A stretch of DNA of 20,000 bases from an uncultured virus (IMG/VR IMGVR_UViG_3300043777_000336) (taxonomy: Duplodnaviria > Heunggongvirae > Uroviricota > Caudoviricetes), in IMG/VR virus record IMGVR_UViG_3300043777_000336; one strand, written 5' to 3'. Shown one piece after another: positions 182-20,000 of this stretch (position 1 is the stretch's first letter; the number at the start of each line of letters is the position of its first letter). The translations under genes were made by a program, and so were the position numbers. The notes beneath the pieces were generated by a model that saw only the letters and a list, made by a program, of their open reading frames with translations, searched no databases and was not told the DNA's origin.

Positions 182-189
182 GGGTCACG

Positions 190-218: not shown

Positions 219-244
219 ACCGACGGCCGTGACGTCGATTCGAC

Positions 245-273: not shown

Positions 274-287
274 GCAGCAAGAGCGAA

Positions 288-458: not shown

Positions 459-459
459 C

Positions 460-7542: not shown

Positions 7543-7808
7543 ATCTCGGCGACCGAGCCCGACAAGCCGCCAAGGAGCTACGCGCCGCTACGGAGGATCT
7601 CAACGCTCGGCTGCGAGGTCTCGAGGACGCGATGTTTGAGAATGGCACACCAAAAGCGACAACCAAGTTATCTTCCGGCCGCTTGTTGATCTGGGACGGC
7701 CGACATCTCTACATCCAGGTCGGTACCGGTAACCGACAACTTCTCACTCAGTGCTCGCGCAGCCTCCGGGTCGAAGCCTGTCACTCTCTACGGGAGCTCG
7801 TCCAATGA
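7539..7808 (+). CDS. Hypothetical protein, 89 aa (MNLGDRA...)
   Basis: GGAG RBS, ATGA overlaps. Confidence 0.7.
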   Translation: MNLGDRARQAAKELRAATEDLNARLRGLEDAMFENGTPKATTKLSSGRLLIWDGRHLYIQVGTGNRQLLTQCSRSLRVEACHSLRELVQ

Positions 7809-8008
7809 ATTGCCCAACTTGCGGAACCGAGCGCGTGTTCCTTATCACTCCTGATTACGGACGAGGCTCGGAATGGGCCTGCTACCAGTGCAACGTGTAC
7901 GGGGCACGGTTCATTTCAAACTCACCGGAAGGAACGAAGTCGGCCGCGTACGCTCGTGCGGGCGTTGATATCCAAACGATTCTCAAATCAGGAAAGATAC
8001 CGACATGA
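7805..8008 (+). CDS. Zinc-ribbon-like hypothetical protein, 67 aa
   Basis: MNCPTCG...WACYQC; GGGAG RBS; ATGA overlaps. Confidence 0.7.
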   Translation: MNCPTCGTERVFLITPDYGRGSEWACYQCNVYGARFISNSPEGTKSAAYARAGVDIQTILKSGKIPT

Positions 8009-8262
8009 ACGACGCTCAGCGCCGTATCCTCGAAGACTTCGCCGACAAGAATCTCCTGGCGCTTCACCGCCAAGACGGGAAAACACGATCGACTCGAGCC
8101 GAGTGGGAAGCTGAACGCGAGAATCTACTTCAGGCAGGCTGGCTCGAATCCGGCATTGCCATCGCCGGCAACGGGCATCACATCACGGACTCGGGACGGG
8201 CAGCGTTGAAGCTGGAACAAATGAAGGTGCCGATGGATCTCAACGAGGCGGTGACAACATGA
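8005..8262 (+). CDS. Hypothetical protein, 85 aa, possible winged helix
   Basis: MNDAQRRIL...LLQAGWLE...HHITDSGRAAL resembles the wHTH tail (ITxxGxxxL). Confidence 0.65.
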   Translation: MNDAQRRILEDFADKNLLALHRQDGKTRSTRAEWEAERENLLQAGWLESGIAIAGNGHHITDSGRAALKLEQMKVPMDLNEAVTT

Positions 8263-8735
8263 ACGAATCTTCGAAATACGCGACCATCCGCGAGCAAGTC
8301 GCCGAGTTCCATACCGCGTTGGAGGTGAAGGACCCGACAACGCCAACCATCCCGTCCGACGAACGTGTCCGGCTCCGCGCTGCGCTCATCGCCGAGGAGT
8401 TCTTCGAGACGATGCAGGCGATGTTCTCTCGAGTCGAGAGAAACAACATCAGCGACCTACACTCGAAGATGAAGGACATCATCGAACACGGATGGATTCG
8501 GGTAGACATGGTCGAGGTTGCTGACGGCATGGCTGATCTCGATTACGTCGTCGAGGGGACCCGGCTCGAGCTCGGCATCGACGGCGCTCCCGTCGCAGCC
8601 GAGGTCCACCGTTCCAATATGGCGAAGTTCGTCAGTGAGCCCGTCTGGGCGCCTAACGGCAAACGCCTCAAGCCCGCGGGCTGGACACCGCCGGACATCG
8701 CCGGGGAGCTCCGAAAGCAGGGATGGAAGGGGTGA
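8259..8735 (+). CDS. MazG-like all-alpha NTP pyrophosphohydrolase (PRA-PH/DR2231-like), 158 aa
   Basis: VAEFH, LIAEEFFE, EVADGMADLDYV, EVHRSNMAK, GKRLKPAGWTPPDI. Confidence 0.85.
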   Translation: MNESSKYATIREQVAEFHTALEVKDPTTPTIPSDERVRLRAALIAEEFFETMQAMFSRVERNNISDLHSKMKDIIEHGWIRVDMVEVADGMADLDYVVEGTRLELGIDGAPVAAEVHRSNMAKFVSEPVWAPNGKRLKPAGWTPPDIAGELRKQGWKG

Positions 8736-8995
8736 GCGCCACTATCGAAGAGTGTCGCGCCGCGCATAAGCTCAAGGAGGAGATTTACTTCCGCCACGCT
8801 GCCGGGTGTTGCTGGCACGTCGTCCTCGACGACAGGAATGTCGAAAACAGCCACGTCGAATACACAGTCTCCAACGTCATCCGCTGTCCTGATTTCCCGC
8901 GCTTCGACGAGTGCGTCCGCATCGGTCCGTTCATCCTGAAGATGAGTCTCACCCAACGACGGAAACTAGCCGCAGGAGGTTACGAAGGAAAATGA
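8732..8995 (+). CDS. Hypothetical protein, 87 aa (MSATIEEC...)
   Basis: GTGA overlap; GCCWHVVLDDRNVE...MSLTQRRKL. Confidence 0.7.
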   Translation: MSATIEECRAAHKLKEEIYFRHAAGCCWHVVLDDRNVENSHVEYTVSNVIRCPDFPRFDECVRIGPFILKMSLTQRRKLAAGGYEGK

Positions 8996-9600
8996 TCCTC
9001 GACCACGACCAAGTTGCTCAAGACCCAGGCGACGACACGGTCATCCTGCGCACACTCGTGCATTGGGTCGACAGCAATATCGCCGCGACGACGAGCCCTT
9101 CGATGAGCCGACCCTGCGGTCACATCGCTCGAGACGCGAAGGGCGTCTGGCGGCTCGCCATGGCCGTCCAACGCGGCCCGACGAAGCGTCAGCGGCACTT
9201 CATCGACGTGGACCCGATGGGCACGCGCGAAGACCGCTGGCCGCTTCACAAACTCAGTCCAGGCGTCTGGGACATTTCCAAGAGCGTGTACATCGAAGGG
9301 CAGATGCACGCGTTCATTACGGTCGTTGGTATCCCTGATCCCGCGCCATGGGAGGCCGGATACGTACAGAAGTCCGGCACGGTCATCTCAATCAAAGATC
9401 CTACACCTGCGGAGCTTGGCGATTTCGCCGGCATGTGGACCAAGAAGATCATCGAGTCGTCGACGTTCAAGGGCATCACCGGATACGCCGTCGTTCTTTC
9501 CCGAGCGGACACCCTCGTTTTCATGGCCGCGACAGAACCGGGAGGAGGGCCGGCGTTTCGGGCTGCGCTGATGAAACATCTGACGGAGAGGTCAACGTGA
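8992..9600 (+). CDS. Hypothetical protein, 202 aa (MILDHDQ...)
   Basis: RBS GGAGG/AAGGA; overlaps at both ends. Confidence 0.7.
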   Translation: MILDHDQVAQDPGDDTVILRTLVHWVDSNIAATTSPSMSRPCGHIARDAKGVWRLAMAVQRGPTKRQRHFIDVDPMGTREDRWPLHKLSPGVWDISKSVYIEGQMHAFITVVGIPDPAPWEAGYVQKSGTVISIKDPTPAELGDFAGMWTKKIIESSTFKGITGYAVVLSRADTLVFMAATEPGGGPAFRAALMKHLTERST

Positions 9601-10151
9601 AATACTTCCTCGACACCGAGTTCTACGAAGACGGCAAGACCATCGACCTGATCTCGCTTGGCCTCGTCGCCGAGGACGGTCGAGAGTTCTACGCCGTTAG
9701 CACCGAAGCCAGGCTCGATCTTGTGAGCACGTGGGTCCGCGAACACGTCCTCCCGAGCCTTCCTCTCTACAGCGACAAGGTCTGGATGCCTCGAAAAGCC
9801 ATCATGCACGAGCTACTACGTTTCGTAGGCTACTGGCAAGGCGACGGTCCCAAGGACCAATACAAAAAGCCGGAATTCTGGGCCTACTACGCTGACTACG
9901 ACTGGGTCGCCCTCTGCCAGCTCTTCGGTACGATGATGAACCTACCCGACGGCTGGCCGATGTTCTGCCGAGACCTGAAGCAGCTGTCCGTCGACGTCGG
10001 TAGTCCAAGGCATCCACCGAACCCTGCCGACGAGCACAACGCCCTCGTCGACGCGCGCTGGAACCGAGACCTGTACGCGTACCTGAAAGCGTATATCCCT
10101 ATCCCAGGCGGAAGCGCAGCACCAACACGAAGCGAGCCGTGCAACCCATGA
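9597..10151 (+). CDS. DEDDh 3'-5' exoribonuclease, Rv2179c/RNase AS-like, 184 aa
   Basis: Starts at GTG 9597: MKYFLDTEF, LISLGLVAEDGREFY, WVREHVLP, WAYYADYDWV..CQLFGTM..LP.GWP..CRDLKQ, EHNALVDARW. Confidence 0.9.
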   Translation: MKYFLDTEFYEDGKTIDLISLGLVAEDGREFYAVSTEARLDLVSTWVREHVLPSLPLYSDKVWMPRKAIMHELLRFVGYWQGDGPKDQYKKPEFWAYYADYDWVALCQLFGTMMNLPDGWPMFCRDLKQLSVDVGSPRHPPNPADEHNALVDARWNRDLYAYLKAYIPIPGGSAAPTRSEPCNP

Positions 10152-10366
10152 TACCCATGAAATTCGAGTTGCTACAGCAGGTCATCGACAAGGTCTTAGG
10201 CGCTCCGAAGGTTCCGAGGATCACGGTCCGCGACGTGGAGGACGGCCTTCGCGAGGTGTTTCGACACGATCCTCTGCGAGCTGAACGAGCCATCGGCAAC
10301 ATGTACGGGTACATGTTCAAAAAGAAGGAAGCTATTTACGACGCGGCGGGCGGGAGGAGACCATGA
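10148..10366 (+). CDS. Hypothetical protein, about 72 aa
   Basis: ATGA overlap at 10148; start could be a downstream Met. Confidence 0.6.
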   Translation: MIPMKFELLQQVIDKVLGAPKVPRITVRDVEDGLREVFRHDPLRAERAIGNMYGYMFKKKEAIYDAAGGRRP

Positions 10367-10596
10367 ACGTCATTGAGCGGTTGTTCGAGATCGTCAAAAC
10401 AAACAGCTTCATCGGTGGATTCGTTCTACCTGAGGCCGAGTTTGCGAAAGCTCTCGACGAGACTATCCGTCATCCTTTGCCTGAATGGGGCGAACGCAAC
10501 ATCACGATGGGCATAGGCTGCCGCAGGATCGTGGTAGGTAATTCTGCCGGAGGGCCACGGATAACGATCCTTACCATCTTGGACTCGGCGAAATGA
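10363..10596 (+). CDS. Hypothetical protein, 77 aa
   Basis: GGAGGAG RBS, ATGA overlaps. Confidence 0.65.
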   Translation: MNVIERLFEIVKTNSFIGGFVLPEAEFAKALDETIRHPLPEWGERNITMGIGCRRIVVGNSAGGPRITILTILDSAK

Positions 10597-10949
10597 CCAT
10601 CCGTACTCAATTCGTGAAGCGCCCTCGATCTCAGGCGATTGCGGACTTCCTGAACCGATACGGCTTCCAGGTCTGCAAGCACGGTCGATCACCTTGTTAC
10701 GTATTCTGCGGCGTACGTGTCTCTCAGCCTGTCAGCGAGCTGGAGCTACGCCGGAGAGGATCCGTAGGCGGTCAACAGCTACCGTGGGAGCCGATTCCGC
10801 AACCGGAACGGAAACGTTGGCTACATAGAGTCTTGGCTCTCGGTCCTACGCTGCGACGTCGACGTAACCGAGGAAAACGTCACGCCCATTGGATGCGCGA
10901 GAAAGCCTATCGAGTCGCGAGGCTAATCGAGCTCGGAGGACCACTATGA
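10593..10949 (+). CDS. Hypothetical Arg-rich protein, 118 aa
   Basis: ATGA overlaps at both ends. Confidence 0.55.
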   Translation: MTIRTQFVKRPRSQAIADFLNRYGFQVCKHGRSPCYVFCGVRVSQPVSELELRRRGSVGGQQLPWEPIPQPERKRWLHRVLALGPTLRRRRNRGKRHAHWMREKAYRVARLIELGGPL

Positions 10950-11248
10950 AGCTCCGAGGTCGCATAAAACGTCATGAGCTCGTCGAACAGACAGGCGATC
11001 CCGACCTGCTCTTCGCCGACGGTTTCGACGACGCCATCCTCGGCGTGGCGACACGCTGCGGTCAGCCCACCATCGTGGTGTACGACCGGGAGAAGTGCAT
11101 CGAGATCCTGATCGCTGAGGCTCGCATCGGCGGGTCTCGTTTCGATTGGCATCGGGAAGATGCCGAGGAGCATTTCGTGCACAGCGTCGAGGGTTCGTGG
11201 TCTGGGCCGCGGACGCCCGCCTACGTCGCGAAACCCAAAGAATCTTGA
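10946..11248 (+). CDS. Phage-type hypothetical protein, 100 aa (MKLRGRIK...)
   Basis: GGAGGA RBS; LFADGFDDAILGV...VVYDREKCIEIL...AEEHF...G..TP resembles a phage family of unknown function as I recall it (not searched). Confidence 0.75.
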   Translation: MKLRGRIKRHELVEQTGDPDLLFADGFDDAILGVATRCGQPTIVVYDREKCIEILIAEARIGGSRFDWHREDAEEHFVHSVEGSWSGPRTPAYVAKPKES

Positions 11249-11281
11249 CTTCGCCATCTGTTGGAGCATGCTCAGCGCTTC

Positions 11282-11346
11282 CCTTGCCGCTACCGTGGCG
11301 AGGCCGAAGCCGCTCTTCTCCCCCCAGGAGAGCGGCTTCTGTTTTT
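11282..11346 (+). ncRNA. Candidate two-hairpin small RNA or structured 3' UTR
   Basis: Hairpin CCTTGCCGC-TACC-GTGGCGAGG (11282-11303) followed by the terminator hairpin; TTGACT-N16-CATGCT upstream (11245-11272). Confidence 0.35.
11306..11346 (+). terminator. Rho-independent terminator
   Basis: 14-bp stem GAAGCCGCTCTTCT/AGGAGAGCGGCTTC (one G:U), C6 loop, followed by TGTTTTT. Confidence 0.8.
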
Positions 11347-11372
11347 CCGTGAGCCGGGGTAATCTGGCACTC

Positions 11373-12089
11373 ATGGCGCGCGTCAGAGAGCTCCCCACCA
11401 ATCCGGCCGGTGACGAAGTCCTCGGGACCGTCGGCGACGTCGATTTTCCTTCGCACGGCGGAGGTGAAGTCTACAAGAGCGAGCAGGGCTACATGCTCGA
11501 GTTCGTCGTGACACCCGACGGAGACTTCGGTGCACCAGCCGCGCGTTGGCGAGTTTACCAAGTCGAGCTCGTCAAAGGCGTGCCCGAAGGGAGTCTCAAA
11601 CAGGTCGCCAAGTTCGCCGACTGGCGACCGAGCGAGCTCAAGGAAGCCTTCGAGGGCGACGACATCATGGCTCGTGCCGAAGCGTACGTCGACTGGGCCG
11701 GGTACTACGGCTGGGAAATGTTCGATGAGGCACCGCTCGTCCTCGACAAGAGGACCGTCGAAGAGCGCTACGACACCGAGATCGAACCGTACGACGAAGA
11801 TGAAGAGGACGAGGAAGACGAGAACGACGATCCGTTCTCTGACGAAGAATTCAACGAGGGTTACATCATCTCGAACAAGGTGAGTGGCGCCTTGGGATCG
11901 GGCCGTGGAGTCGTTGTGACCCAAGCCAACAAGCGAGTAGGCGTCTATGAAGACAAAGAAGAAGCTATGAAGGCCATCAATAAGCGCATGGAAAAAGAAG
12001 GCTTCTTCCCGAACGTCTATTTCGTAAATGAGCGAGGGAACGTCGACCTGCTCGATGAAAAGGGCAATATCGTCGAGTCACGAGTCTAG
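11373..12089 (+). CDS. Acidic hypothetical protein, 238 aa (MARVRELP...)
   Basis: Start placed after the terminator rather than at 11160; D/E tract DEDEEDEEDENDD; C-terminal FFPNVYFVNERGNV. Confidence 0.75.
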   Translation: MARVRELPTNPAGDEVLGTVGDVDFPSHGGGEVYKSEQGYMLEFVVTPDGDFGAPAARWRVYQVELVKGVPEGSLKQVAKFADWRPSELKEAFEGDDIMARAEAYVDWAGYYGWEMFDEAPLVLDKRTVEERYDTEIEPYDEDEEDEEDENDDPFSDEEFNEGYIISNKVSGALGSGRGVVVTQANKRVGVYEDKEEAMKAINKRMEKEGFFPNVYFVNERGNVDLLDEKGNIVESRV

Positions 12090-12116
12090 TTCTGCACAAC
12101 GCAACAGGAGAATCCC

Positions 12117-12311
12117 ATGGCACGCAGTCTCGATCTCGATGTCGACAGCCCGGACAAGGTGAGCCGCATCTTGCGCAACGCCGCCGAACGTTTCTACGAA
12201 GATGCCGGCGAGCTCGAGGCATCTTGGCAAGATCCGGGAGCCGGTCGTCCATGGACCCTCATCGCCAAGATTCTCGATCGCGCTGCCGACAGCATCGACA
12301 AGAAAATCTAG
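12117..12311 (+). CDS. Hypothetical protein, 64 aa
   Basis: AGGAG RBS. Confidence 0.75.
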   Translation: MARSLDLDVDSPDKVSRILRNAAERFYEDAGELEASWQDPGAGRPWTLIAKILDRAADSIDKKI

Positions 12312-12319
12312 GAGCGGGC

Positions 12320-12514
12320 GTGAATATCGGGAAGTTCGCGTCCTGTATCCGTCAGGCGCGAGACATCTACGTCTGGGTCCCGTATCACAAGGACGACGGC
12401 GTCTACGTCCAGGTCTCGAAGACCAGCGCGAAGCTCATCCTCGAAGATGCTCGCGAAGGGAACGTCATAGAGATTCTTGCCGACATGCGAGCGGACGGGC
12501 TGTTCATCGGATGA
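12320..12514 (+). CDS. Hypothetical protein, 64 aa (MNIGKFAS...)
   Basis: AGGAG RBS then GTG 12320; last gene of the rightward run. Confidence 0.7.
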   Translation: MNIGKFASCIRQARDIYVWVPYHKDDGVYVQVSKTSAKLILEDAREGNVIEILADMRADGLFIG

Positions 12515-12610
12515 CCACCTAAAAAAGTACGCACACGCGCTGTCCCTATTCTGAGCTCGTCTCGTTCGAAGGCTCGCGACTCCTCCGTCCTCTCTTGCCC
12601 CGCGCACACG

Positions 12611-12829
12611 CTACCGCTCCCTGATGGGCGGCAGGTTGTCGCGAACCACCCGTCCCAACCTCTCCCATTGTGAGAGCCGACCTTCTAGCTCGGCGACGTA
12701 GAACCCGGCCTGCTCCAGAAGTTCGGCCGCATCGTCGAGGATCGGAGTGCCGCTCCGACGTGTGCTCGCCGCCGCACACTTCTGCGCCATCTCTACCAAC
12801 GTGTCCCGGGTCACCATGATCTTCGACAT
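12611..12829 (-). CDS. Array gene, hypothetical, 72 aa
   Basis: GAGG RBS; last gene of the leftward run. Confidence 0.7.
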   Translation of the reverse strand: MSKIMVTRDTLVEMAQKCAAASTRRSGTPILDDAAELLEQAGFYVAELEGRLSQWERLGRVVRDNLPPIRER

Positions 12830-12864
12830 CGCCTCTCACCTTCCTCCAATCGCGCGCACCAAAG

Positions 12865-13176
12865 TCACTGGTCAATCAGCGGCGTCATGTGACCAGGCGG
12901 CAGAATCTCCGCCAGCAACGCATCAAGATACTCGTGCGCGCAAAAGTGGTAGGCGATGCACGCCGCTCCGTCCGTCTCCGCCTTCCTGCGATGCTTCAAC
13001 GCCTTCTGCGCGATAGTGAGCAGGCGGTCTCGATACTCCTTCACCGCCTCCGCTTTGACCTTCGCGGCGTGTGCGTGCAGGTCCAGACACCTCGGACAAA
13101 TCTCGGGATACCCTTCACCGCCCTTCGGTATCGGCCTTCCACATCCAGGGGTGTCGCACGTCGGTCGCTTCGCCAT
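12865..13176 (-). CDS. Array gene, zinc-finger-like N-terminus, 103 aa
   Basis: GGAGG RBS; CDTPGC...CPRC; flanked by repeats. Confidence 0.75.
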   Translation of the reverse strand: MAKRPTCDTPGCGRPIPKGGEGYPEICPRCLDLHAHAAKVKAEAVKEYRDRLLTIAQKALKHRRKAETDGAACIAYHFCAHEYLDALLAEILPPGHMTPLIDQ

Positions 13177-13221
13177 GGTTCCTCCGCGTCTCCTTCGCCT
13201 ACGCCTGAATCGCGCGCACGG

Positions 13222-13401
13222 TCATCGAACCTTCGCCAGCTTCCAGAGTGCGACTTCGGCAGACGAAGCAGGTGCGCACCAGTCTCTTCCGGTCAGTCGC
13301 CAGAAGACCTTGCGCTGTATGAGGAGCCGCTGAAGCTCCCAACCTCGACGACGACCGAAGGCCGTCAGCATCTTGAACTTCGTGACCTTCACGCCAGCCA
13401 T
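13222..13401 (-). CDS. Array gene, basic hypothetical, 59 aa (MAGVKVTK...)
   Basis: Lies exactly between repeat copies 13410 and 13211. Confidence 0.6.
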   Translation of the reverse strand: MAGVKVTKFKMLTAFGRRRGWELQRLLIQRKVFWRLTGRDWCAPASSAEVALWKLAKVR

Positions 13402-13421
13402 CCTCTCTTCGCGCGCACGGG

Positions 13422-13538
13422 TCAGCCGCCCCAGAGCGTGACGCATACCCATCGGTATCCGACGTGATCGAAATGCCACCACCGTCGCCTGAATGGCGAC
13501 GAAGCCCCTGTTGGCTGCACATACTCATCCAGCATCAT
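13422..13538 (-). CDS. Array gene, 38-aa Trp-rich peptide
   Basis: MMLDEYVQPTGASSPFRRRWWHFDHVGYRWVCVTLWGG; AAGGAGG RBS within the repeat; stop 3 nt before the next repeat. Confidence 0.6.
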   Translation of the reverse strand: MMLDEYVQPTGASSPFRRRWWHFDHVGYRWVCVTLWGG

Positions 13539-13564
13539 CGTCTAGCCCTCCTTCGCGCGCACGG

Positions 13565-13850
13565 TCACTCGCACGATTGTGACTCGACTGGCGCCGACGT
13601 GACCGCGGGTCGGCATTCCTTCGGCGCATCTGGGCTCGGGATCAGTTCCCACCACACCGTCTTCCCCACCTTGAACGCGCGAAGGCCGGGGATGCGTTTG
13701 TCGATGAGTATGAGCCACCTATCCGCGGTGGGGAGACTGATGCGTCTCGACTCCGCAATGGTCGACCGGCTCACCCGACCACCGGACATAAGCTCGCCGA
13801 CGACTCGTTAGGATGCCGTCAAGCGTTCCCTCATGTTTGTTGACCGCCAC
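13565..13850 (-). pseudogene. Array gene, winged-HTH-like protein with an apparent +1 frameshift
   Basis: GTG 13850 gives MAVNKHEGTLDGIL. Deleting one base of the TT at 13808-13809 joins it to RVVGELMSGGRVSRSTIAESRRISLPTADRWLILI..., an HTH-like sequence. Confidence 0.5.
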
Positions 13851-13888
13851 GTTCCTCACCTCCGTCCAGCCCTCCTTCGCGCGCACGG

Positions 13889-14143
13889 TCACGCGCCGAT
13901 CTTCTTGTCGAGCAATCGCGTCGCCTCTGCAACTGCACCTATCCTACCGTCAAGAAGCGCTGCGATTGCCACCTCAAGCTCAGCGATACGAGCACGGTCC
14001 TCCGTGCGGAGGTCGTCAACCACCTCGGCGAGCAACGTGGTCAAACCGTCCACGTCATCCTGCGACGGGACGCCGTGCAGGTTCGGGAGCGACTTGAGGA
14101 ACTTCCTCGCCCGGTCTCGCATCGGCCCGTAGAGATCCACCAT
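13889..14143 (-). CDS. Array gene, hypothetical, 84 aa
   Basis: Flanked by two full repeats; RBS in the repeat. Confidence 0.75.
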   Translation of the reverse strand: MVDLYGPMRDRARKFLKSLPNLHGVPSQDDVDGLTTLLAEVVDDLRTEDRARIAELEVAIAALLDGRIGAVAEATRLLDKKIGA

Positions 14144-14182
14144 CTAGCCCTCCTTCGCGCGCACATCAATCAGCCTCCGCCG

Positions 14183-14425
14183 TTAGGCGGAGTACCATCC
14201 GGTCCAGTCACGCTCCACACTTGCGTCTGTCTCTGCTCTCGCACGGTCTAGGGCGGCTAGCGACCGACCGAGCACGCGTCCGTCATTGTTGGCCGCGTGG
14301 TACCGAGATCGTTGAAGCCGGGCAGCAGTCCACCCGAGTGTGAACCCGATGACGGTCGAAAAGAGGGCGACCGCTACCATACGAGCTAGGCCGACAATGC
14401 CACCAAAAAAGACGTATTCGTCCAT
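14183..14425 (-). CDS. Array gene, predicted membrane protein, 80 aa
   Basis: Hydrophobic N-terminus VFFGGIVGLARMVAVALFSTVIGFTLGW; GAGGTG RBS. Confidence 0.7.
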   Translation of the reverse strand: MDEYVFFGGIVGLARMVAVALFSTVIGFTLGWTAARLQRSRYHAANNDGRVLGRSLAALDRARAETDASVERDWTGWYSA

Positions 14426-14444
14426 TCGTCACCTCGCGCGCACC

Positions 14445-14624
14445 TCATCGAATGCGCCGTAGAAGATAAATCTCTGAAACCGTTAGCGGTATGATGACGA
14501 CCCAGAAGAGTGGAGCGTCGCGCATCGCTCCGGTTGAGTTGCGCCAACGCAGCGATACCGGGCCGAAAAGGATACACACTGCGAACGTGACCACCGCAAC
14601 CCGGTCGAACCAGCGGCGCCTCAT
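14445..14624 (-). CDS. Array gene, 59-aa protein with two hydrophobic segments
   Basis: Hand translation MRRRWFDRVAVVTFAVCILFGPVSLRWRNSTGAMRDAPLFWVVIIPLTVSEIYLLRRIR; stop 1 nt before repeat 14435. Confidence 0.6.
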   Translation of the reverse strand: MRRRWFDRVAVVTFAVCILFGPVSLRWRNSTGAMRDAPLFWVVIIPLTVSEIYLLRRIR

Positions 14625-14636
14625 CCTCTACCCTTC

Positions 14637-15036
14637 TCAAGTCGCATGAAAACTGTCCTGACATGTCACAATCCCATCAGTATCGAGACCAGCAATGTAG
14701 TCCTTCACCCTGTCGCATGAGGGGCAATGGCGCACCCTATCGAGATGTCGAAGCGCACGCCTGGCGACCGCACCAGCCTCGTCGTCATCGCTGGGCTCAA
14801 GTGACGAGATAAGCGCCAGCGCCTCCCGAGCGAACCCAAGCTCACACGAGTCGGCCGACCTGATCTCGTCCAGGAGAGTCGTGAGGGCCGGTGTCAGTTC
14901 GTCGATTCGGCACCCCTTGATCCTCCGCACTCTTCTGAAGCCAGACACGTAGGGCGTGCCACTGCTCCGTATGCAACTGGATTCCAAAGCCCCGCAAGTG
15001 GTCGATGGTCGCGTTAGCGAAGTTGACCTGACTCAT
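14637..15036 (-). pseudogene. Array gene with an apparent +1 frameshift (or two overlapping ORFs)
   Basis: ATG 15036 gives MSQVNFAN...SAEDQGVP. Deleting one base of the TT at 14906-14907 continues IDELTPALTTLLDEIR...CPSC...CQDSFHAT*. Confidence 0.5.
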
Positions 15037-15075
15037 CTCGTCACCTTCCTCCGTCCAGGCTTCCAAAGCGCGCAC

Positions 15076-15327
15076 TCAAGCCTGCGCAACGTGACTCGTG
15101 GTCCACGGGGGCTCGCCTTGGACGAGCAAGCGGGTCGGCACGAGACCAAGACGCATCGCGAGCGCCTGCCCCTTGACGGTCGCCTCCCAGCCTCCCTCGT
15201 TCGCTCTCCGCGCGAGTGCATCCGCGATGAGGACGCCCACCGCGGGTTGGGCGTGCTTCCGCACCCACTCCTGGGTGCGTGGCTTGCAGGCTAGGGCTCG
15301 TAGCAATTCGTATGGCTTCATGGTCAT
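15076..15327 (-). CDS. Array gene, hypothetical, 83 aa (MTMKPYELL...), possible winged helix
   Basis: AAAGGA RBS; GGWEATVKGQAL; stop directly abuts repeat 15067. Confidence 0.65.
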   Translation of the reverse strand: MTMKPYELLRALACKPRTQEWVRKHAQPAVGVLIADALARRANEGGWEATVKGQALAMRLGLVPTRLLVQGEPPWTTSHVAQA

Positions 15328-15370
15328 CGTCCTTTCGTTTCGGCTGACTACGCTTGAATCGCGCGCACGG

Positions 15371-15712
15371 TCACGCTGGTTCGGAGAGGACGAACGCCCA
15401 TCCGACCCATGACGGCCTGAGCCTCGCCACAGCCCGACCAATGCGGGCCATCATGGTTTCGTCATCGCCGCGCTTCGTCAGGCGGAGCGCCAGCCGATTG
15501 TGAGCCGTCGTACCCACCATCGGATTCTTCTCTTCGACCAAGACTCTAACCTTACCAGTGGGACCGGCGGCCATCGTGTCGGTCACCCAAGGCTTGTATG
15601 CGTTCATGTTGTTTCTCTCCTTCCGTTCCGCCGCGCCCCTGCACGTGCACTCGTAGCTCATGCCGCCGCACTTCGGACACCGCGTCGGCTTGTCTTCCTT
15701 CGTCTCCACCAT
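15371..15712 (-). CDS. Array gene, hypothetical, 113 aa
   Basis: Flanked by repeats; N-terminal CPKC..CTC; possible internal start MNAYK after AAGGAG. Confidence 0.7.
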   Translation of the reverse strand: MVETKEDKPTRCPKCGGMSYECTCRGAAERKERNNMNAYKPWVTDTMAAGPTGKVRVLVEEKNPMVGTTAHNRLALRLTKRGDDETMMARIGRAVARLRPSWVGWAFVLSEPA

Positions 15713-15735
15713 CTAGCCCTCCTTAGCGCGCACGG

Positions 15736-16002
15736 TCAGCCGATCCGAAGCTCTTGCACGATCGCCCGTGCGGCCCCGATGTTCTTCGGCTCGCGAGCGA
15801 TCCTGAGCAACGCGAACTTGTATCGCTCCGCTCGGTCGTACTCCACCTTGAGCGCGTACTGCGCCGCTGTCGTTTCCTTCTCGGCTTGCTCAGCACGCCC
15901 GCGCTGGAACGCCACGTCGACGCGCCACTGCTGTTGCGCCCACACCGGCAGACGTGTCCACCGATCCATATCTTCGTGCTCTGCAAGCTCTGCGGTCGGC
16001 AT
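15736..16002 (-). CDS. Array gene, coiled-coil hypothetical, 88 aa
   Basis: Purine-rich RBS; flanked by repeats. Confidence 0.75.
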   Translation of the reverse strand: MPTAELAEHEDMDRWTRLPVWAQQQWRVDVAFQRGRAEQAEKETTAAQYALKVEYDRAERYKFALLRIAREPKNIGAARAIVQELRIG

Positions 16003-16052
16003 GTCTCTCTTCCTTTCCTGCGTTCAGGCTTTGATCGCGCGCACGGTGGCGC

Positions 16053-16409
16053 TCACGATTTTGACTCTCCGACGTCCGGCGCGCACACGTTACAGCCCTG
16101 GTCCACGCCGTCACCGCACTTCGGGCAGTGTGGGCACGTGGTGACGTCTGAGCCACACGTGCGGCAGATGACGGATGGATCGGGCTCGATCGTGATCAGC
16201 ACGGCACCATCGATTCCGAAGAGCCGGCCGAAGTCACGAATGACGTGCTCCGACTTCTCGCCACACGCTGCACCGGGAACGTTCACAAGCAACCTCTCGT
16301 CTCCGCCGATGACGAACGGTGTCTCGCCGTCCGGTGCGGGGATGAGCCGCAGTCCTACATCGACTGTCGACACGCTCTCCACGGTGGCTCGGTAAGTCAT
16401 CTTCGACAT
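16053..16409 (-). CDS. Array gene with C-terminal Cys-rich region, 118 aa
   Basis: GGAGG RBS; CRTC..CPHCPKC..CNVC. Confidence 0.75.
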   Translation of the reverse strand: MSKMTYRATVESVSTVDVGLRLIPAPDGETPFVIGGDERLLVNVPGAACGEKSEHVIRDFGRLFGIDGAVLITIEPDPSVICRTCGSDVTTCPHCPKCGDGVDQGCNVCAPDVGESKS

Positions 16410-16441
16410 CGCCCGCTACCTCCCTCGTCCCGCGCGCACGG

Positions 16442-16666
16442 TCACGCACCCTTCCGAAGCTGCCGAGCGGCCGAGATGAGCGCGCGGCCCCACCCTTCGA
16501 GCGCCTGGGCCATGGCCTCGATGTCCACCGGCCTCACGTCCTTCCGCACCTTCATCACGAACCTGTCGCGGGCGACATCAACGTCGAACGTCCACGGCAG
16601 CCGCCCACGTAGTGCGCGCTCGACCGTGAAGCTGCGCACGTTGGCGACCTTTCGTTTGCTCATCAT
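16442..16666 (-). CDS. Array gene, hypothetical, 74 aa
   Basis: Flanked by repeats; RBS in the repeat. Confidence 0.75.
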   Translation of the reverse strand: MMSKRKVANVRSFTVERALRGRLPWTFDVDVARDRFVMKVRKDVRPVDIEAMAQALEGWGRALISAARQLRKGA

Positions 16667-16692
16667 CGTCTAGCCCTCCTTCGCGCGCACGA

Positions 16693-17004
16693 TCATCGCT
16701 TCGATTTCCAGTCTGCAAGCGCCGCTTTCAGTCTCGGCACCGACTCTTCCGCAGACATGTACCAAAGCGCCTTCACCGCGGCCCACGTGGGCGTGCCGGG
16801 CTCGATAACCGCGAGCATCTCACCTGGACCGAGACCGCCACGCTCCGCGAGACGTTCGGCGCTCTGGTCGTGGTTTCGGCGACACACATCCTGATGCTCG
16901 CCGATGAAGTCCCATGGTACGGACTTCGGGCAGTCCAACTCCTCAAGTCGGCGCATTCGGTCGCGAGACCCCTGCCAGAGTACGGGGAAGGTTCGTTCGG
17001 TCAT
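16693..17004 (-). CDS. Array gene, phage-type hypothetical, 103 aa
   Basis: VPW...NHDQSAERLAERGGL..E resembles a phage family of unknown function as I recall it (not searched). Confidence 0.8.
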   Translation of the reverse strand: MTERTFPVLWQGSRDRMRRLEELDCPKSVPWDFIGEHQDVCRRNHDQSAERLAERGGLGPGEMLAVIEPGTPTWAAVKALWYMSAEESVPRLKAALADWKSKR

Positions 17005-17034
17005 CTAGCCATCCTTCGCGCGCACCGTGCGCGG

Positions 17035-17244
17035 TCACGATTTCGATCCAATCGTCCCCGGCATAGGGTGGCACCAGTCAGCGCAGCACTTGTCGCACTT
17101 CATGCCAGAGCGCCCGAAACAGGTGGCGGGTTCGCCGCAGTCATCACACGGACCCGGAGGAGGGGTCGCCTGCGGTTGTGGGGTCACCTCTGCGAGCGCA
17201 AGCGCCAACACGGTTGCGAGTGACGCCTTTCTCTCCAAGCCCAT
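17035..17244 (-). CDS. Array gene, Cys-rich, 69 aa
   Basis: CDDCGEPATC...CDKCC..C; flanked by repeats. Confidence 0.65.
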   Translation of the reverse strand: MGLERKASLATVLALALAEVTPQPQATPPPGPCDDCGEPATCFGRSGMKCDKCCADWCHPMPGTIGSKS

Positions 17245-17300
17245 CGTCTAGCCCTCCTTCGCGCGCATTTGTGGGGATGCGCTGCCCGCTTCGCCACGTC

Positions 17301-18086
17301 TCATTTCGTGCCCGGCAAGGTCACCTCTATGACCCCTCCGACCATACTCGGCGATTCGTCTTCGGGGCGCACGACCGGAACGCCCGACCCCTCCACGAGG
17401 GTCATGTTCTCGTCCGCGTCCTCCAGCCCGCAGTCGCCTCGCTCCGTGTGCCTGGAGCAGTACCAAGTAAACTGACCCGTGAAGTCGTACTCGGGCTCGA
17501 CCATCAGGCGCCCGTTCCCGACCTGTAGCTTCTTCAATCGGTAGACGTTCTTCGGGGGCTCGCTGCATCCGACTTGCTGGCAGCGCTCCCGCTCCTCTGC
17601 GTCCGTGAGGTGATGCCAGGGGATGGCCTTGCTGCCCTCGTTCGCAACGGTCACATGCCAGGCCATCCCCATCGCAGCGTCGCCGAACGTTGCAAAGTGC
17701 TGCTGCATCAAAACGACGCCCTTGCGGCGCACCACTAGCCGCGCGGCGGGGGCGTCGAGCACGTACCGGGCTTCCGCGTACAGGAAGTGCGGCGCGTACG
17801 TCAGCAGCATCTTCATCCGGTGGAACTGGTGAGTGAGGAGCTTCGGCGATCCGGTCGTCCCAACTTCGAGATGGGCGCTGATCCGCCACTCGTCGCCGCT
17901 CAAGCCGCTCGTCTTGTACCGAGGGACGATATACGCGCGGAGCTTGGCTCCGGTCGCCTCGACCTCGACGCTGTCCCAGTAATCGTCGTCGTGATGCCGA
18001 TGAAGCGGTCGCTTGGGTTGCTCGCCACCGAGCGACGACTTGAGGTTCTCTCCGAGTCGCTTCATCACGCTTCCGCTGTCGGTCAT
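17301..18086 (-). CDS. Array gene, hypothetical, 261 aa
   Basis: AAAGG RBS; CQQVGC...YCSRH..RGDC possible metal site. Confidence 0.8.
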   Translation of the reverse strand: MTDSGSVMKRLGENLKSSLGGEQPKRPLHRHHDDDYWDSVEVEATGAKLRAYIVPRYKTSGLSGDEWRISAHLEVGTTGSPKLLTHQFHRMKMLLTYAPHFLYAEARYVLDAPAARLVVRRKGVVLMQQHFATFGDAAMGMAWHVTVANEGSKAIPWHHLTDAEERERCQQVGCSEPPKNVYRLKKLQVGNGRLMVEPEYDFTGQFTWYCSRHTERGDCGLEDADENMTLVEGSGVPVVRPEDESPSMVGGVIEVTLPGTK

Positions 18087-18136
18087 AGCCGTACCTTTCG
18101 TCTCAATTCACGTCGTCGGATGGGTCGCGCGCAGCA

Positions 18137-18304
18137 TTAGGAGTGTGCCTCTCCCGGTTTCTCTGTATCAGGTCGAATGTGCGGCTCCGTCCCATTGCCT
18201 TCTACTTCGGCACCATCGGGACAGTCTTCGATGTTGCTTTCAGCCCATTGACCGCACCGCTCGCAGCGAAACGGGATGAAGCCCGGGTCAGTCCCTACGA
18301 GCAT
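18137..18304 (-). CDS. Array gene, 55 aa
   Basis: Hand translation MLVGTDPGFIPFRCERCGQWAESNIEDCPDG...GEAHS; GGAG RBS in repeat 18316; stop 2 nt before repeat 18126. Confidence 0.6.
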   Translation of the reverse strand: MLVGTDPGFIPFRCERCGQWAESNIEDCPDGAEVEGNGTEPHIRPDTEKPGEAHS

Positions 18305-18334
18305 GGTTGAATCTCCGCGCGCATTTTCGGTGAC

Positions 18335-18607
18335 CTAACCGCCATAGGATTTGCGAGGAGGGTAGGGGGAGTCCTCTGTCGGAGGAGGTAGCGGTTTCCG
18401 CGGCTTCCCCGCCCGCACCTTCTGACACCACGTCTCCAGCATCTTAAGGAGGCATGAGTCTGAGCACACGTGCCACGACGATCCGCCCTCGTTGAGCCAC
18501 TCCACGTCAGCTCCGAAGATCGACCCGCCCCTAGTCACACTCTCGCCCACCGGAGGGGTCATCGTCTTTCCGCAAGCGTCGCATTTGTAGATCAGCGTCA
18601 TGCTCAT
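18335..18607 (-). CDS. Array gene, TRASH-like zinc finger (CxxC...HxCSxxC), 90 aa
   Basis: YKCDACGK...HVCSDSCL; GGAGG RBS. Confidence 0.75.
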   Translation of the reverse strand: MSMTLIYKCDACGKTMTPPVGESVTRGGSIFGADVEWLNEGGSSWHVCSDSCLLKMLETWCQKVRAGKPRKPLPPPTEDSPYPPRKSYGG

Positions 18608-18625
18608 GTTTTCCTCCGGTGCCTC

Positions 18626-18787
18626 TCACGCATTCGCGATGCGGATCCGGGCCACACAGTCGTCGTCATCGCAGTAGACACACGGCTCCCAATCGTCCAC
18701 CTCGTACTCGCCATCATCTAGCGGGTCGATGGGATCAATCTCTCCGCAATCAGTGTGCCATTCGAGCTTCGATTTCGTCTCACCCAC
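18626..18787 (-). CDS. Acidic hypothetical protein, 53 aa (possibly the tail of a frameshifted gene starting at 18942)
   Basis: GGAGG, 6 nt, GTG: MGETKSKLEWHTDCGEIDPIDPLDDGEYEVDDWEPCVYCDDDDCVARIRIANA. Confidence 0.55.
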   Translation of the reverse strand: MGETKSKLEWHTDCGEIDPIDPLDDGEYEVDDWEPCVYCDDDDCVARIRIANA

Positions 18788-18938
18788 CGAATTCCTCCGC
18801 GCGTACTTTCGACCCTCAGGGCGCTTCCCGGCACGAAGCCTTTGCTTGTCTGTGATGGAGAGCTTCGACCAACAGAGCCCGCACGACTCTGGATTGTTGC
18901 ATCCGGGGACGGAGGAATGTCCACGGGGAACGGCTTTT

Positions 18939-19208
18939 TCATTCGTCCGGATCCACAGGAACAGGCGGTCGCTTCAACTTCTCGAGAATTAGGTTGACGA
19001 CCTCGATCGCACGCTTACGCGGCAAGCGAATCGCGAACATGTGACCGTCGACCTCGCCGCCCGTCCCATCAGCCCGAATCTGGATCTCGTTCGAGATCCC
19101 ATCCGGAAGCGGACCATTCATGTCGAAGACGAACACGTTGGCGGGGCCCATGCGGATATCCGCCGGTTTGGACGAGGTGGCAATGACAAGCTCGATGGTG
19201 TCTCTCAT
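18939..19208 (-). CDS. Hypothetical protein, 89 aa (MRDTIELV...)
   Basis: GAGGAG RBS before ATG 19208. Confidence 0.7.
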   Translation of the reverse strand: MRDTIELVIATSSKPADIRMGPANVFVFDMNGPLPDGISNEIQIRADGTGGEVDGHMFAIRLPRKRAIEVVNLILEKLKRPPVPVDPDE

Positions 19209-19218
19209 CGCGATCTCC

Positions 19219-19464
19219 TCAATTCGGTGATTCGTTCCGCACAGATTCTCCACCAATGATCTTATCTTCGTAGATGAAGCGCTGACCACAGGAGACGCAG
19301 TTGTCCACGTTGAGCAGCTCGAATGTCTGCGGATGCCGGTGGATGAGCAAAACACCCTTCGGACAGGCAGGGCACTTAGACTTGTACTCGCCTTCGTCGA
19401 AGCGCTCGAGCTTCGCATGAGAGACTTTGATCGCGGGCTTGTCGAGATTCGGATGGTCGCTCAT
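19219..19464 (-). CDS. Zinc-ribbon protein, 81 aa (MSDHPNL...)
   Basis: CPAC...CVSCG; ATGA overlap with the upstream gene. Confidence 0.7.
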   Translation of the reverse strand: MSDHPNLDKPAIKVSHAKLERFDEGEYKSKCPACPKGVLLIHRHPQTFELLNVDNCVSCGQRFIYEDKIIGGESVRNESPN

Positions 19465-19637
19465 GAAGCGATCCACCCTTCCAATTCCACCTCGCGCAGT
19501 TTGAGGCGCAAGAGCTCCTCCACCACGCTCGCTAACGTCGGATCAGGACCACCAAAGAAGCCGGTATGACGCAGCTTCGTCAGAGCCTCCGCTTGGGCCT
19601 GCGAGAGAGTCACGGTCACTCTCTTAGAGCGCTTCAC
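19461..19637 (-). CDS. Ribbon-helix-helix DNA-binding protein, 58 aa
   Basis: GTGA overlap; MKRSKRVTVTLSQAQAEALTKL..TG....TLASVVEELLR. Confidence 0.7.
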   Translation of the reverse strand: MKRSKRVTVTLSQAQAEALTKLRHTGFFGGPDPTLASVVEELLRLKLREVELEGWIAS

Positions 19638-19804
19638 TTCTTCTTCGACTTCTGCGGAACGAGCCCGCGCTTCTTGCACTCGCGTTCGATCTCTTCGCGG
19701 TGCATGTCCCTGACAGGCTCACCGCGCAGGTAACGAGCCACGGTCTTGGGATCGACGCCGGCCGCCACGCCGACCTCGGTGAGGAGCTGGTTCCTTGACT
19801 TCAT
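19634..19804 (-). CDS. Small HTH DNA-binding protein (LacI/Cro-like), 56 aa
   Basis: Hand translation MKSRNQLLTEVGVAAGVDPKTVARYLRGEPVRDMHREEIERECKKRGLVPQKSKKK; similar to 288-458. Confidence 0.75.
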   Translation of the reverse strand: MKSRNQLLTEVGVAAGVDPKTVARYLRGEPVRDMHREEIERECKKRGLVPQKSKKK

Positions 19805-19810
19805 GCCGCA

Positions 19811-19839
19811 TTTCTACATCTTGGAGTATCTCGATGCAA
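19811..19839 (-). promoter_or_regulatory. Leftward sigma70-like promoter for the minus-strand run
   Basis: TTGCAT (19839-19834), 17 nt, TAGAAA (19816-19811); ATG 6 nt downstream with no RBS, so probably leaderless. Confidence 0.5.
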
Positions 19840-19862
19840 CTATTTTTGCCCCCTCTATCTTT

Positions 19863-19899
19863 CTAGTTGACTCGTCTTCCTGAAAGTTGTACCAACTAG
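19863..19899 (+). promoter_or_regulatory. Rightward promoter-like region with inverted repeats (operator candidate)
   Basis: TTGACT at 19867; CTAGTTG (19863-19869) and CAACTAG (19893-19899); AGTTG-TAC-CAACT palindrome 19885-19897. Confidence 0.45.
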
Positions 19900-19937
19900 G
19901 AACCAAGGCCGCACTTCACGGCCAGAAAGAGGCTCAG

Positions 19938-20000
19938 ATGGGATTTCCCAAGAAGCAGGCAGCAGGTCCGGTTCTCGAGCAGTCGCAGGTCGCGCTCCTG
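19938..20000 (+). CDS. Start of a divergent gene, truncated by the window edge
   Basis: AAAGAGG RBS; MGFPKKQAAGPVLEQSQVALL... Confidence 0.6.
   Translation, partial: MGFPKKQAAGPVLEQSQVALL

Follow-up and report, generated by a model that had tools for sequence, protein, structure and literature searches.

The 20,000-nt stretch analyzed here (the window), from an uncultured virus of the Caudoviricetes (IMG/VR record IMGVR_UViG_3300043777_000336), carries at 12599..18324 an array of small minus-strand genes whose junctions share a 9-nt core, NTGCGCGC(G/T); window coordinates are those of the whole stretch. We found that this motif is a real, strongly nonrandom junction element that recurs throughout a clade of phages. 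As read from sequence, the core opens a short open reading frame (ORF), here called a mini-ORF, that tends to stop at the start codon of the next gene; this apparent relay is a new feature, missed by a first-pass annotation of the same DNA. Comparison with related arrays supports the view that the units between motif copies behave as exchangeable cassettes. The reading that we favor, at roughly even chances, is that the core forms the shared center of a translational-coupling joint that doubles as the cassette crossover point in accessory-gene arrays of soil phages.

The core marks the junctions of a small-gene array

The pattern TGCGCGCK occurs 20 times in the window, against 5.74 copies expected (SD 2.26; maximum 12 in 200 shuffles). 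Seventeen copies are on the minus strand, all within 12851–18324, where about one is expected, and all 17 sit between consecutive minus-strand ORFs, followed by a Shine–Dalgarno sequence and then a start codon. The three plus-strand copies are at 146, 7251, and 16613, the first two reading TGCGCGCT. Exact TGCGCGCG is present 15 times on the minus strand of 12591–18330 and 0 times on the plus strand (mean 0.85 and largest count 4 in 200 shuffles), with none in 1–12590 or 18331–20000. The first-pass annotation had proposed testing for enrichment at junctions against a GC-matched null. The comparison with shuffles, in which 17 junction copies stand against about one expected, bears out its descriptions of a motif in one orientation at nearly every small-gene junction and of a rightward run of genes (1–12.5 kb) that lacks it. 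The array as a whole is as follows.

12599..18324, minus strand: array of 17 exact cores, one degenerate terminal copy, and about 19 small ORFs.

The typical junction reads TGA-CC-GTGCGCGCG-AAGGAGGGCTAG-(ACG)-ATG. Eight of the 17 copies have the upstream stop codon at a distance of exactly 2 nt from the 9-mer, and the others have it 0 to 32 nt before, as the annotation had reported; the upstream frames at the copies ending at 17268, 15733, and 13219 were assigned by eye. A 21-mer recurs in three exact copies and four copies with one mismatch (expected 0), which accounts for the seven near-identical copies noted earlier, and the one junction said to lack the motif, 14625–14636, indeed holds no copy. 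Purine and pyrimidine alternate along the core.

Related phages carry the same core and layout

An exact 21-mer search led to a complete 127.5-kb viral genome with terminal repeats (G001). Homologues of 12 of the 19 rightward-run ORFs of the window were found there at 41 to 80% identity, in inverted orientation; the 27 leftward ORFs of the window gave a single match to G001, of 24 residues (E 0.004), and a search of the window ORFs against all other arrays gave three matches. What lies between the cores is thus unrelated, from array to array, to the genes of the window. The array of G001 lies elsewhere in its genome, with 11 exact cores on one strand within 6.5 kb, and the other 121 kb contain the core at chance level, with no avoidance outside the array. 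Two further viral genomes, G002 (63 kb) and G003 (55 kb), have the same core and layout. These three genomes share about 20 ORFs at 30 to 79% identity and thus form one clade, whose phages carry integrase genes and have a GC content of 60%. An 87-kb viral contig (L157) holds a short array and has one weak match to G002, too little to place it in the clade. Same-strand copies, 3 to 14 per contig with 0 on the opposite strand, also occur in at least 12 metagenome contigs, which were retrieved with a pattern that included the commonest leader.

Elsewhere the motif appears as isolated copies. Scanning viral contigs with 16-mers returned true arrays at 4 of 39 loci (G001 twice, L042, and L043), the rest being mostly chance, and a second 16-mer scan returned them at 2 of 57 loci (L145, which is G001, and L157). 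In bacterial genome contigs, all 14 matches to a 20-mer look like chance single copies (both strands counted; five read in context), and they gave no lead to a prophage or host. Among 50,697 GenBank phages, no DNA similar to the whole array was found, and a 43-nt junction gave only chance matches (E at least 3). Arrays in related phages, together with chance single copies elsewhere, indicate that the element belongs to a phage group and is not a general signal. Contig L043 also contains, near its end (7545–7887), imperfect tandem repeats with offsets of about 45 to 60 nt and 84 to 94% identity that are unrelated to the core.

The core opens a mini-ORF that tends to end at the next start codon

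We analyzed 86 junctions, for which the downstream start was chosen by rule as the first start with a Shine–Dalgarno-like run and an ORF of at least 30 amino acids; 28 of 114 core instances were dropped for want of a Shine–Dalgarno sequence plus start within 51 nt. In a logo of these junctions the core TGCGCGCG is sharply conserved, position 0 is a purine (R), and position +9 is A; TGACC stands immediately upstream, and about 15 nt downstream are moderately conserved. The core thus reads RTG-CGC-GCG; 64 junctions have G at position 0 and 16 have A, which leaves 4 with C and 2 with T. The frame set by RTG (frame 0) meets a stop within 12 codons at 66 of the 86 junctions (median 7 codons), compared with 27 and 8 in the other two frames. 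This stop falls between −4 and +6 nt from the downstream start at 51 of 77 junctions, compared with 16 and 4 in the control frames, and the spacings in the 51 are an ATGA or GTGA overlap (16), direct abutment (15), and gaps of 3 nt (13), 4 nt (4), and 6 nt (3). At 12 more of the 77, the RTG is in frame with the downstream gene (10 and 20 in the control frames). Collapsing the 58 distinct leaders to 32 sequence clusters, so that the commonest leader counts only once, gave coupled counts of 18 for frame 0 and of 4 and 1 for the controls.

This stop–start relation holds for leaders that range from 4 to 15 codons and end in TAG, TGA, or TAA, and it explains a conserved CTAG at +18. The Shine–Dalgarno sequence of the downstream gene lies inside the mini-ORF. 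On the upstream side, the preceding stop is exactly 2 nt before RTG at 37 of 80 junctions, and at 7 of the 80 the upstream ORF reads through the core to end at the TAG of the leader. The common core variants, GCG to GCT (9 of 86) and GCG to GCC, are both synonymous for alanine; rarer degenerate junction copies include nonsynonymous ones. CGC is codon 2 of every mini-ORF. Because the mini-ORF links an upstream stop to a downstream start, the motif is very probably also an expression signal and not only a recombination site. Translation of the mini-ORF, translational coupling, and the choice of recombining enzyme are all inferred.

About half of the junctions have a TCGAAA box some 16 to 20 nt upstream of the core, which gives unrelated upstream ORFs common C-terminal tails (-SKS*, -SKSGA*, and -SKAGA*); examples are at 16045–16065 and 17026–17045 of the window and in L049, L051, L059, L073, and L080. 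Two explanations offer themselves: a joint that reaches into the end of the coding sequence and provides its stop codon, or a tail that functions as a tag.

In the window itself, 10 of the 17 mini-ORFs stop between −4 and +6 nt from the downstream start, one overlaps that start by 10 nt, one is in frame with its gene, and one has lost its usual stop. The copies are listed in the order of transcription, all on the minus strand.

18316..18324, core copy 1: ATGCGCGCG with a flank, caccgaaa-ATG, that we call type B; upstream TAG 10 nt before; mini-ORF MRAEIQPCS, whose TAG end overlaps the start at 18304 (gap −10).
18126..18134, core copy 2: CTGCGCGCG; upstream TAA 2 nt before; 8-codon frame-0 ORF with its stop 21 nt before the start at 18086.
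17260..17268, core copy 3: ATGCGCGCG followed by AAGGAGGGCTAG, 32 nt after the stop of a 261-aa gene; mini-ORF MRAKEG, TAG 3 nt before the ATG at 17244.
17017..17025, core copy 4: GTGCGCGCG followed by AAGGATGGCTAG; mini-ORF TAG abuts the ATG at 17004 (gap 0).
16682..16690, core copy 5: TGA-TC-GTGCGCGCG followed by AAGGAGGGCTAG; mini-ORF stop 3 nt before the ATG at 16666.
16431..16439, core copy 6: TGA-CC-GTGCGCGCG; mini-ORF VRAGRGR, TAG 6 nt before the ATG at 16409.
16036..16044, core copy 7: mini-ORF VRAIKA, TGA 21 nt before the ATG at 16002, with a separate Shine–Dalgarno sequence between.
15725..15733, core copy 8: TGA-CC-GTGCGCGCT (synonymous Ala variant); mini-ORF TAG abuts the ATG at 15712.
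15360..15368, core copy 9: TGA-CC-GTGCGCGCG followed by ATTCAAGCGTAG; mini-ORF VRAIQA, stop 26 nt before the ATG at 15321.
15067..15075, core copy 10: TGA-GTGCGCGCT; the GTG shares its frame with the downstream ORF (ATG at 15036), whose own start it may be.
14435..14443, core copy 11: mini-ORF VRAR, TGA 3 nt before the ATG at 14425.
14156..14164, core copy 12: GTGCGCGCG followed by AAGGAGGGCTAG; mini-ORF stop abuts the ATG at 14143.
13878..13886, core copy 13: TGA-CC-GTGCGCGCG followed by AAGGAGGGCTGG; the usual TAG is lost, and frame 0 stays open for 55 codons, overlapping a helix-turn-helix (HTH)-like ORF at 13565–13789.
13554..13562, core copy 14: TGA-CC-GTGCGCGCG followed by AAGGAGGGCTAG; mini-ORF stop 3 nt before the ATG at 13538.
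13410..13418, core copy 15: mini-ORF VRAKRGWLA, whose TGA overlaps the GTG start at 13392 (GTGA).
13211..13219, core copy 16: TGA-CC-GTGCGCGCG followed by ATTCAGGCGTAG.
12851..12859, core copy 17: mini-ORF VRAIGGR, TGA 6 nt before the ATG at 12829.
12599..12607, degenerate terminal copy (18th): GTGCGCGGG, 1 nt after the TAG of the last gene, with a Shine–Dalgarno-like run next and no ORF.
14625..14636, junction without a core: TGA, then gaagggtagagg, then ATG.

Mosaicism of single cassettes, with breaks at the core

All-against-all blastn of the arrays yielded 12 cassette-type matches, after exclusion of the near-identical pairs G001/L057 and L042/L075, of the L055/L065/L074 group (no array), and of matches between integrase genes. 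Unless two arrays are near-identical, their homology stays within single cassettes. In 10 of the 12 matches, the 5′ end lies 0 to 21 nt upstream of the core T in both sequences (offsets 0/0 three times, −1/−1, −4/−5, −5/−5, −6/−6, −8/−8, −12/−13, and −19/−21). Of the other two 5′ ends, one coincides in L043 with a core and in L042 with a core that has one mismatch, and the other is inside a gene. None of the 12 begins in the leader between core and start, and none crosses the core into the upstream cassette. Matches end at their 3′ side 6 to 7 nt into the next core (L060/L078, L078/L064, and L157/L053).

Individual events have the same borders. Downstream of the core T, and including it, L053 and L066 are 100% identical; upstream they are unrelated. 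A gene of about 215 aa has four different upstream neighbors in L059, L060, L073, and L078. One cassette of L078 is flanked on both sides by a 58-nt perfect direct repeat whose end lies in the core. A nontandem duplication in L059 copies a cassette from a point 12 nt ahead of one core to a point 6 nt inside the next (231 nt, 95.7%), and L060 retains a 50-nt stub of core plus leader as a scar. The integrase gene flanking the array is 92% identical between G001 and L072, and the next cassettes differ. In L064 the integrase gene is cut midgene and joined to a core-led cassette. Within the window, a nucleotide match to L051 starts at core copy 3 (17267), and one to L076 (93% over 140 nt) starts at 13224, 6 nt upstream of core copy 16, the upstream neighbors differing in both cases; a weaker match to L080 (74.5% over 102 nt) is internal to the gene at 12865–13176.

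The first-pass annotation had pictured a gene-shuffling platform built of units of motif, ribosome-binding site, gene, and stop, and had suggested aligning relatives to see where gene exchange breaks. The alignments do place the breaks at the motif, with 10 of the 12 5′ ends within 21 nt upstream of the core. What stands of the platform is its exchangeable cassettes, with homology that starts and stops at the motif. The annotation had offered two routes of exchange, a recombinase encoded elsewhere or short-homology recombination, of which we consider the second more likely.

DNA metagenome contigs of the source run break at the repeated junctions. Four core-to-core "joints" in these contigs were considered as deletions or circles and rejected, their sides being 20 to 30 nt and their depth higher than that of the window; they most likely come from other motif-bearing phages in the sample.

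A proposed coupling joint that doubles as a crossover point

In the arrangement that we favor, the joint on the mRNA would run from the stop of one gene, across about 2 nt, to RTG-CGC-GCG and then through a mini-ORF of 4 to 15 codons, which holds the Shine–Dalgarno sequence of the following gene, to a stop at that gene's start. A ribosome ending the first gene would reinitiate at the RTG 2 nt later, cross the Shine–Dalgarno sequence, leaving the binding site unfolded, and terminate at the start of the second gene; a gene behind any joint would then be translated whatever its neighbor. On the DNA, the cores are identical and in many cases lengthened to about 30 nt by TGACC and the TCGAAA tail; they would provide short homology in register, and core-to-core recombination could swap, insert, duplicate, or delete one unit of leader, gene, and stop with its neighbors still expressed. 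Because every joint has the same core, recombination between cores would keep expression intact. G001 encodes an exonuclease and a Sak4-like single-strand annealing protein, both conserved in G002 and G003, and short-homology recombination by this pair is the most likely route.

A bolder claim, which we advance tentatively and expect to be wrong somewhat more readily than right, is that the array embodies a plug-and-play standard for accessory genes. The 9-nt core would be at once a universal crossover point and the start of a relay mini-cistron, integron-like but with neither attC nor IntI; translational coupling would replace a common promoter, as a natural bicistronic design chained 10 to 20 times.

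Several observations count against the coupling-and-crossover joint. In the window, 4 of the 17 mini-ORFs stop 21 to 26 nt before the downstream start, and among the 77 junctions frame 0 is neither coupled nor in frame in 14. Nor does the mini-ORF alone explain why CGCGCG is fixed at the nucleotide level, which is better explained by a recombination role or another binding factor than by the peptide. The search pattern for contigs included the commonest leader, so that each contig has at least one MRAKEG-type copy by construction, for which the cluster test corrects only in part; the contigs compared for mosaicism were likewise ascertained by the motif. Between the window and G001, genes have also been replaced at motif-less junctions of the rightward run, and the motif is therefore not required for mosaicism. 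The L064 event joins a core to midintegrase sequence where the relative has no core, and any phage mosaicism that selection has filtered should show breaks at gene boundaries. Finally, the window has only three homologous cassettes elsewhere, so that most of the evidence for shuffling comes from its relatives.

Some of these points would suit a rival explanation, in which the motif is only an expression signal, either a translational coupler or the operator of an RNA-binding regulator, and the rest is ordinary mosaicism: illegitimate recombination would be indiscriminate, and selection would spare only exchanges at gene borders, where the motif happens to lie. The regularities of the mini-ORF indicate an expression role, and both the replacements at motif-less junctions and the L064 breakpoint away from any core in the relative would be natural on that account. 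We nevertheless regard it as unlikely, on the strength of where the breaks fall. Of 12 informative 5′ breakpoints, 0 lie in the 10- to 40-nt leader and 11 are at or just upstream of a core, and matches end 6 to 7 nt inside the core that follows. Single cassettes are also bounded by direct repeats or by a duplication from core to core, and turnover is high beside a flank that is 92% identical.

Recombinase, structure, and promoter searches

The first-pass annotation had called for a search for recombinases, and the outcome is divided. No recombinase gene was found in the 20-kb window. Relatives do have tyrosine recombinases in or near their arrays, and the two scored against an integron-integrase model, those of G001 and L059, fall far below its cutoff. 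The arrays of G001 (110030–111094) and L059 each enclose a tyrosine recombinase gene (Pfam Phage_integrase) on the same strand as the cassettes; L072 has a nucleotide-level homologue (92% identity), and G002 and G003 each encode a tyrosine recombinase 5 to 12 kb from the array. The gene within the arrays follows a type B core, and in G001 and L059 it is preceded by a conserved ORF of 181 to 201 amino acids of no known family. In L064 the recombinase is truncated at the core-led cassette. The loci are as follows.

G001, 110030–111669: recombinase locus.
L059, 1082–2661: recombinase locus.
L072, 155–1177: recombinase locus.
L064 (oriented), 2568–3145: recombinase locus.

Integrons consist of co-oriented, promoterless single-gene units with an attC site at each junction, and attC sometimes supplies the upstream stop codon. 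The attC site is formed by imperfect inverted repeats (R″-L″...L′-R′) and a GTTRRRY core that fold into a hairpin, and an IntI-type tyrosine recombinase is encoded beside the array. The cassettes of the present arrays resemble these units in being co-oriented, promoterless by scan, and exchanged singly, with a site at the junctions. They differ in having an 8- to 9-nt linear core, a phage as host, and no attC hairpin, GTTRRRY sequence, or IntI-type integrase. GTTRRRY is absent from the logo of the 86 junctions, and the folding test and the logo gave no sign of inverted-repeat arms around the core. Folding of 60-nt segments (−30 to +30) at 86 copies gave a mean z of +0.24, against +0.09 for within-gene controls, and no Rfam family matched the motif. 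On these grounds we rejected a hairpin, an attC site, an RNase III site, and a terminator as identities of the element, and the earlier statement that it has neither a GTTRRRY core nor an attC hairpin is confirmed by both logo and folding. The recombinases of G001 and L059 scored 38 and 22 bits on the integron-integrase model TIGR02249, whose cutoff is 265.

An integron-like, site-specific system, in which a tyrosine recombinase in or near the array acts on the core and moves circular cassettes, would account for the position of these genes, for a core that is conserved more sharply than its flanks, and for the 58-nt direct repeat of L078, which resembles the result of circle integration. We consider such a system improbable, given the window's lack of a recombinase within 20 kb, the persistence of the L064 array beside a truncated one, the low integron-integrase scores, and the lack of inverted arms or a hairpin at the core; the integrases may simply serve lysogeny, and a site of this kind does not predict an in-frame mini-ORF.

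In mycobacteriophage L5, stoperators occur genome-wide and share their sequence with the operator at the early promoter. The core is likewise a short asymmetric site that lies in short intergenic gaps in one orientation to transcription, and a gene that by eye encodes an HTH protein (19634–19804) opens the operon. The core could act on DNA as a stoperator-like binding site of a phage repressor, or on RNA as an operator through which the whole array is turned off at a fixed time. Unlike the L5 sites, the copies are confined to arrays, with none in the divergent region at 19805–19925, the place to look for an operator, and chance-level occurrence in G001 outside its array, and the frame regularities would go unexplained; we judge the odds of such a role to be very poor.

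Scanning for the sigma-70 consensus, which may not be that of the host, gave 0 sites in 12000–20000. Six terminator-like sites were found over the two strands together, none of them a motif-associated terminator for the array transcript, and no RNA polymerase was found among 94 scanned of the 117 G001 ORFs of at least 130 amino acids. That each copy is a promoter, or a promoter–terminator pair, for its own small gene, as excerpts of PMC2839356 and PMC8707807 describe for the PeSLs of T4-type phages and the intergenic repeats of halovirus HF2, is therefore scarcely credible, the more so because the sequence upstream of the copies is not conserved and a promoter could not fit without running into coding sequence, the core abutting the Shine–Dalgarno sequence and following a stop by 2 nt.

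Relation to known systems

Botstein's modular theory is said to have predicted short "linker" sequences for gene exchange among phages. Clear examples are few, the PeSLs of T4-type phages being the best known. The present array is an unusually regular case in a different phage group, with its signal inside the message and not in a promoter–terminator pair. Among the matches listed in literature searches for the 9-mer and for intergenic repeats or translational coupling in phages, none describes the element.

According to excerpts of PMC2839356 and PMC4122927, a PeSL consists of a strong sigma-70 promoter and a terminator stem-loop, each unit forms its own transcript, and mini-circles have been shown in T4-type phages. 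The resemblance, as far as those excerpts go, is that short repeats separate small, mostly orphan genes in hyperplastic regions, that insertions, deletions, and replacements break at the repeats, and that exchange is proposed to be homologous, between repeats. Against the PeSLs so described, the present arrays show no promoter, stem-loop, or terminator in our scans; the joint lies within a polycistronic message and is apparently translational, and the core is 9 nt long and made only of G and C, in phages of 60% GC with integrase genes. By analogy, the two elements may fill the same evolutionary role with a different anatomy.

The start-associated sequence (SAS) of cluster K mycobacteriophages is, in excerpts of PMC3203893, a 13-bp element (GGGATAGGAGCCC) placed 3 to 7 bp upstream of the start, with 11 to 19 copies over half a genome; the same excerpts describe the ESAS as 17-bp inverted repeats and compare the SAS with the L5 stoperators. 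SAS copies, as described there, are also asymmetric, in one orientation, and next to the starts of nonstructural genes of different families; they contain or abut the Shine–Dalgarno sequence and sometimes hold the upstream stop, and their function is unproven. Unlike the SAS in this description, the core here, (R)TGCGCGCG, stands 5′ of the Shine–Dalgarno sequence at a distance of 10 to 88 nt from the start codon, keeps a closer link with the upstream stop, and occupies all junctions of a compact array except 14625–14636. The excerpted text mentions neither a mini-ORF nor cassette exchange for the SAS, and the 17-bp inverted repeats that it gives for the ESAS have no counterpart here.

Bicistronic designs, in excerpts of PMC5995908, place the Shine–Dalgarno sequence of the target gene within a short leader cistron whose stop overlaps or abuts the target's start, making translation independent of context. 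The leaders of the present arrays share with the designs so described the enclosed downstream Shine–Dalgarno sequence and the stop at the downstream start (51 of 77 junctions), as known here from sequence. The designs in those excerpts are synthetic, with a ribosome-binding site of the leader's own, whereas here reinitiation is proposed, repeated 17 times in series.

If the mini-ORF relay operates as proposed, it would show how a phage keeps captured genes expressed regardless of their neighbors. It would also bear on the fast turnover of accessory genes, possibly including antidefense genes, and would offer a natural, portable design rule for building operons. The motif can serve as a simple marker for hypervariable gene arrays in metagenomes.

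Genes of the array and the rest of the window

The small ORFs of the array are as follows.

18335–18607, 18137–18304, 17301–18086, 17035–17244, 16693–17004, 16442–16666, and 16053–16409, minus strand: small ORFs, first part.
15736–16002, 15371–15712, 15076–15321, 14637–15036 (apparent frameshift), 14445–14624, and 14183–14425, minus strand: small ORFs, second part.
13889–14143, 13565–13789 (or up to 13852), 13422–13538, 13222–13392, 12865–13176, and 12611–12829, minus strand: small ORFs, third part.

In all 21 array ORF calls tested, GC content is higher at third than at second codon positions, as in coding sequence. The genes between motif copies had been called unrelated, and all-against-all blastp agrees, giving a single weak pair (E 0.002) and no other paralogy among the array ORFs. 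Scans against Pfam, PHROG, and PADLOC placed none of them in a family above threshold. The earlier count of 19 genes holds if 14637–15036 is a single frameshifted gene and not otherwise. This gene is apparently split by a frameshift near 14915–14925, with its N-terminal part (MSQVNF...AEDQG) and a plausible C-terminal part (...IDELTPALTTLL...HAT*) in different frames; the shift could be an assembly error or genuine. At 13565–13892 on the minus strand, two frames overlap and compete; a change of CTAG to CTGG, which removed the mini-ORF stop, opened one of them. At 18626–18940 on the same strand, a long open frame rich in cysteine pairs (…GCNNPESCGLCW…CVYCDDDDC…) has no start codon until 18787 and, over 18626–18942, overlaps two weak ATG ORFs. 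Gene calls at 18626–18942 and 13565–13892 are uncertain.

The 261-aa gene (17301–18086) has a 57%-identical homologue in a 36-kb viral contig (L098, 8001–8630) with no motif array, and the gene family thus exists outside such arrays too. Its product was considered as a recombinase and rejected, having no family match and a homologue whose contig is without the array; an NCBIfam scan, made for this ORF only, gave nothing above threshold. A search of viral contigs with a neighboring 309-aa gene gave no relatives.

A leftward run of genes, beginning near 19804, has the array as its 3′ part.

18604..19804, minus strand: upstream part of the leftward run, without cores and with overlapping stops and starts; first ORF at 19634–19804.

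The HTH label of that first ORF was assigned by eye, and Pfam and PHROG scans gave it no family match. Between it and a rightward ORF that starts at about 19887–19925 is an AT-richer gap (19805–19925) that looks like a divergent control region; it has no core copy and, in our scan, no consensus promoter.

The rightward run (1–12.5 kb) encodes RtcB, a MazG-like pyrophosphohydrolase, and an Rv2179c-like exoribonuclease. The RtcB RNA ligase gene is at 522–2033 on the plus strand (Pfam E 3.9e-87). G001 has an RNA-ligase-family gene as an array cassette instead, with two tRNA-Arg genes (anticodons GCG and ACG) just upstream; the G001 loci concerned are 111972–112550 and 114791–114959. The RNA ligase and tRNA-Arg genes may form a kit for RNA repair and tRNA replacement against host anticodon nucleases.

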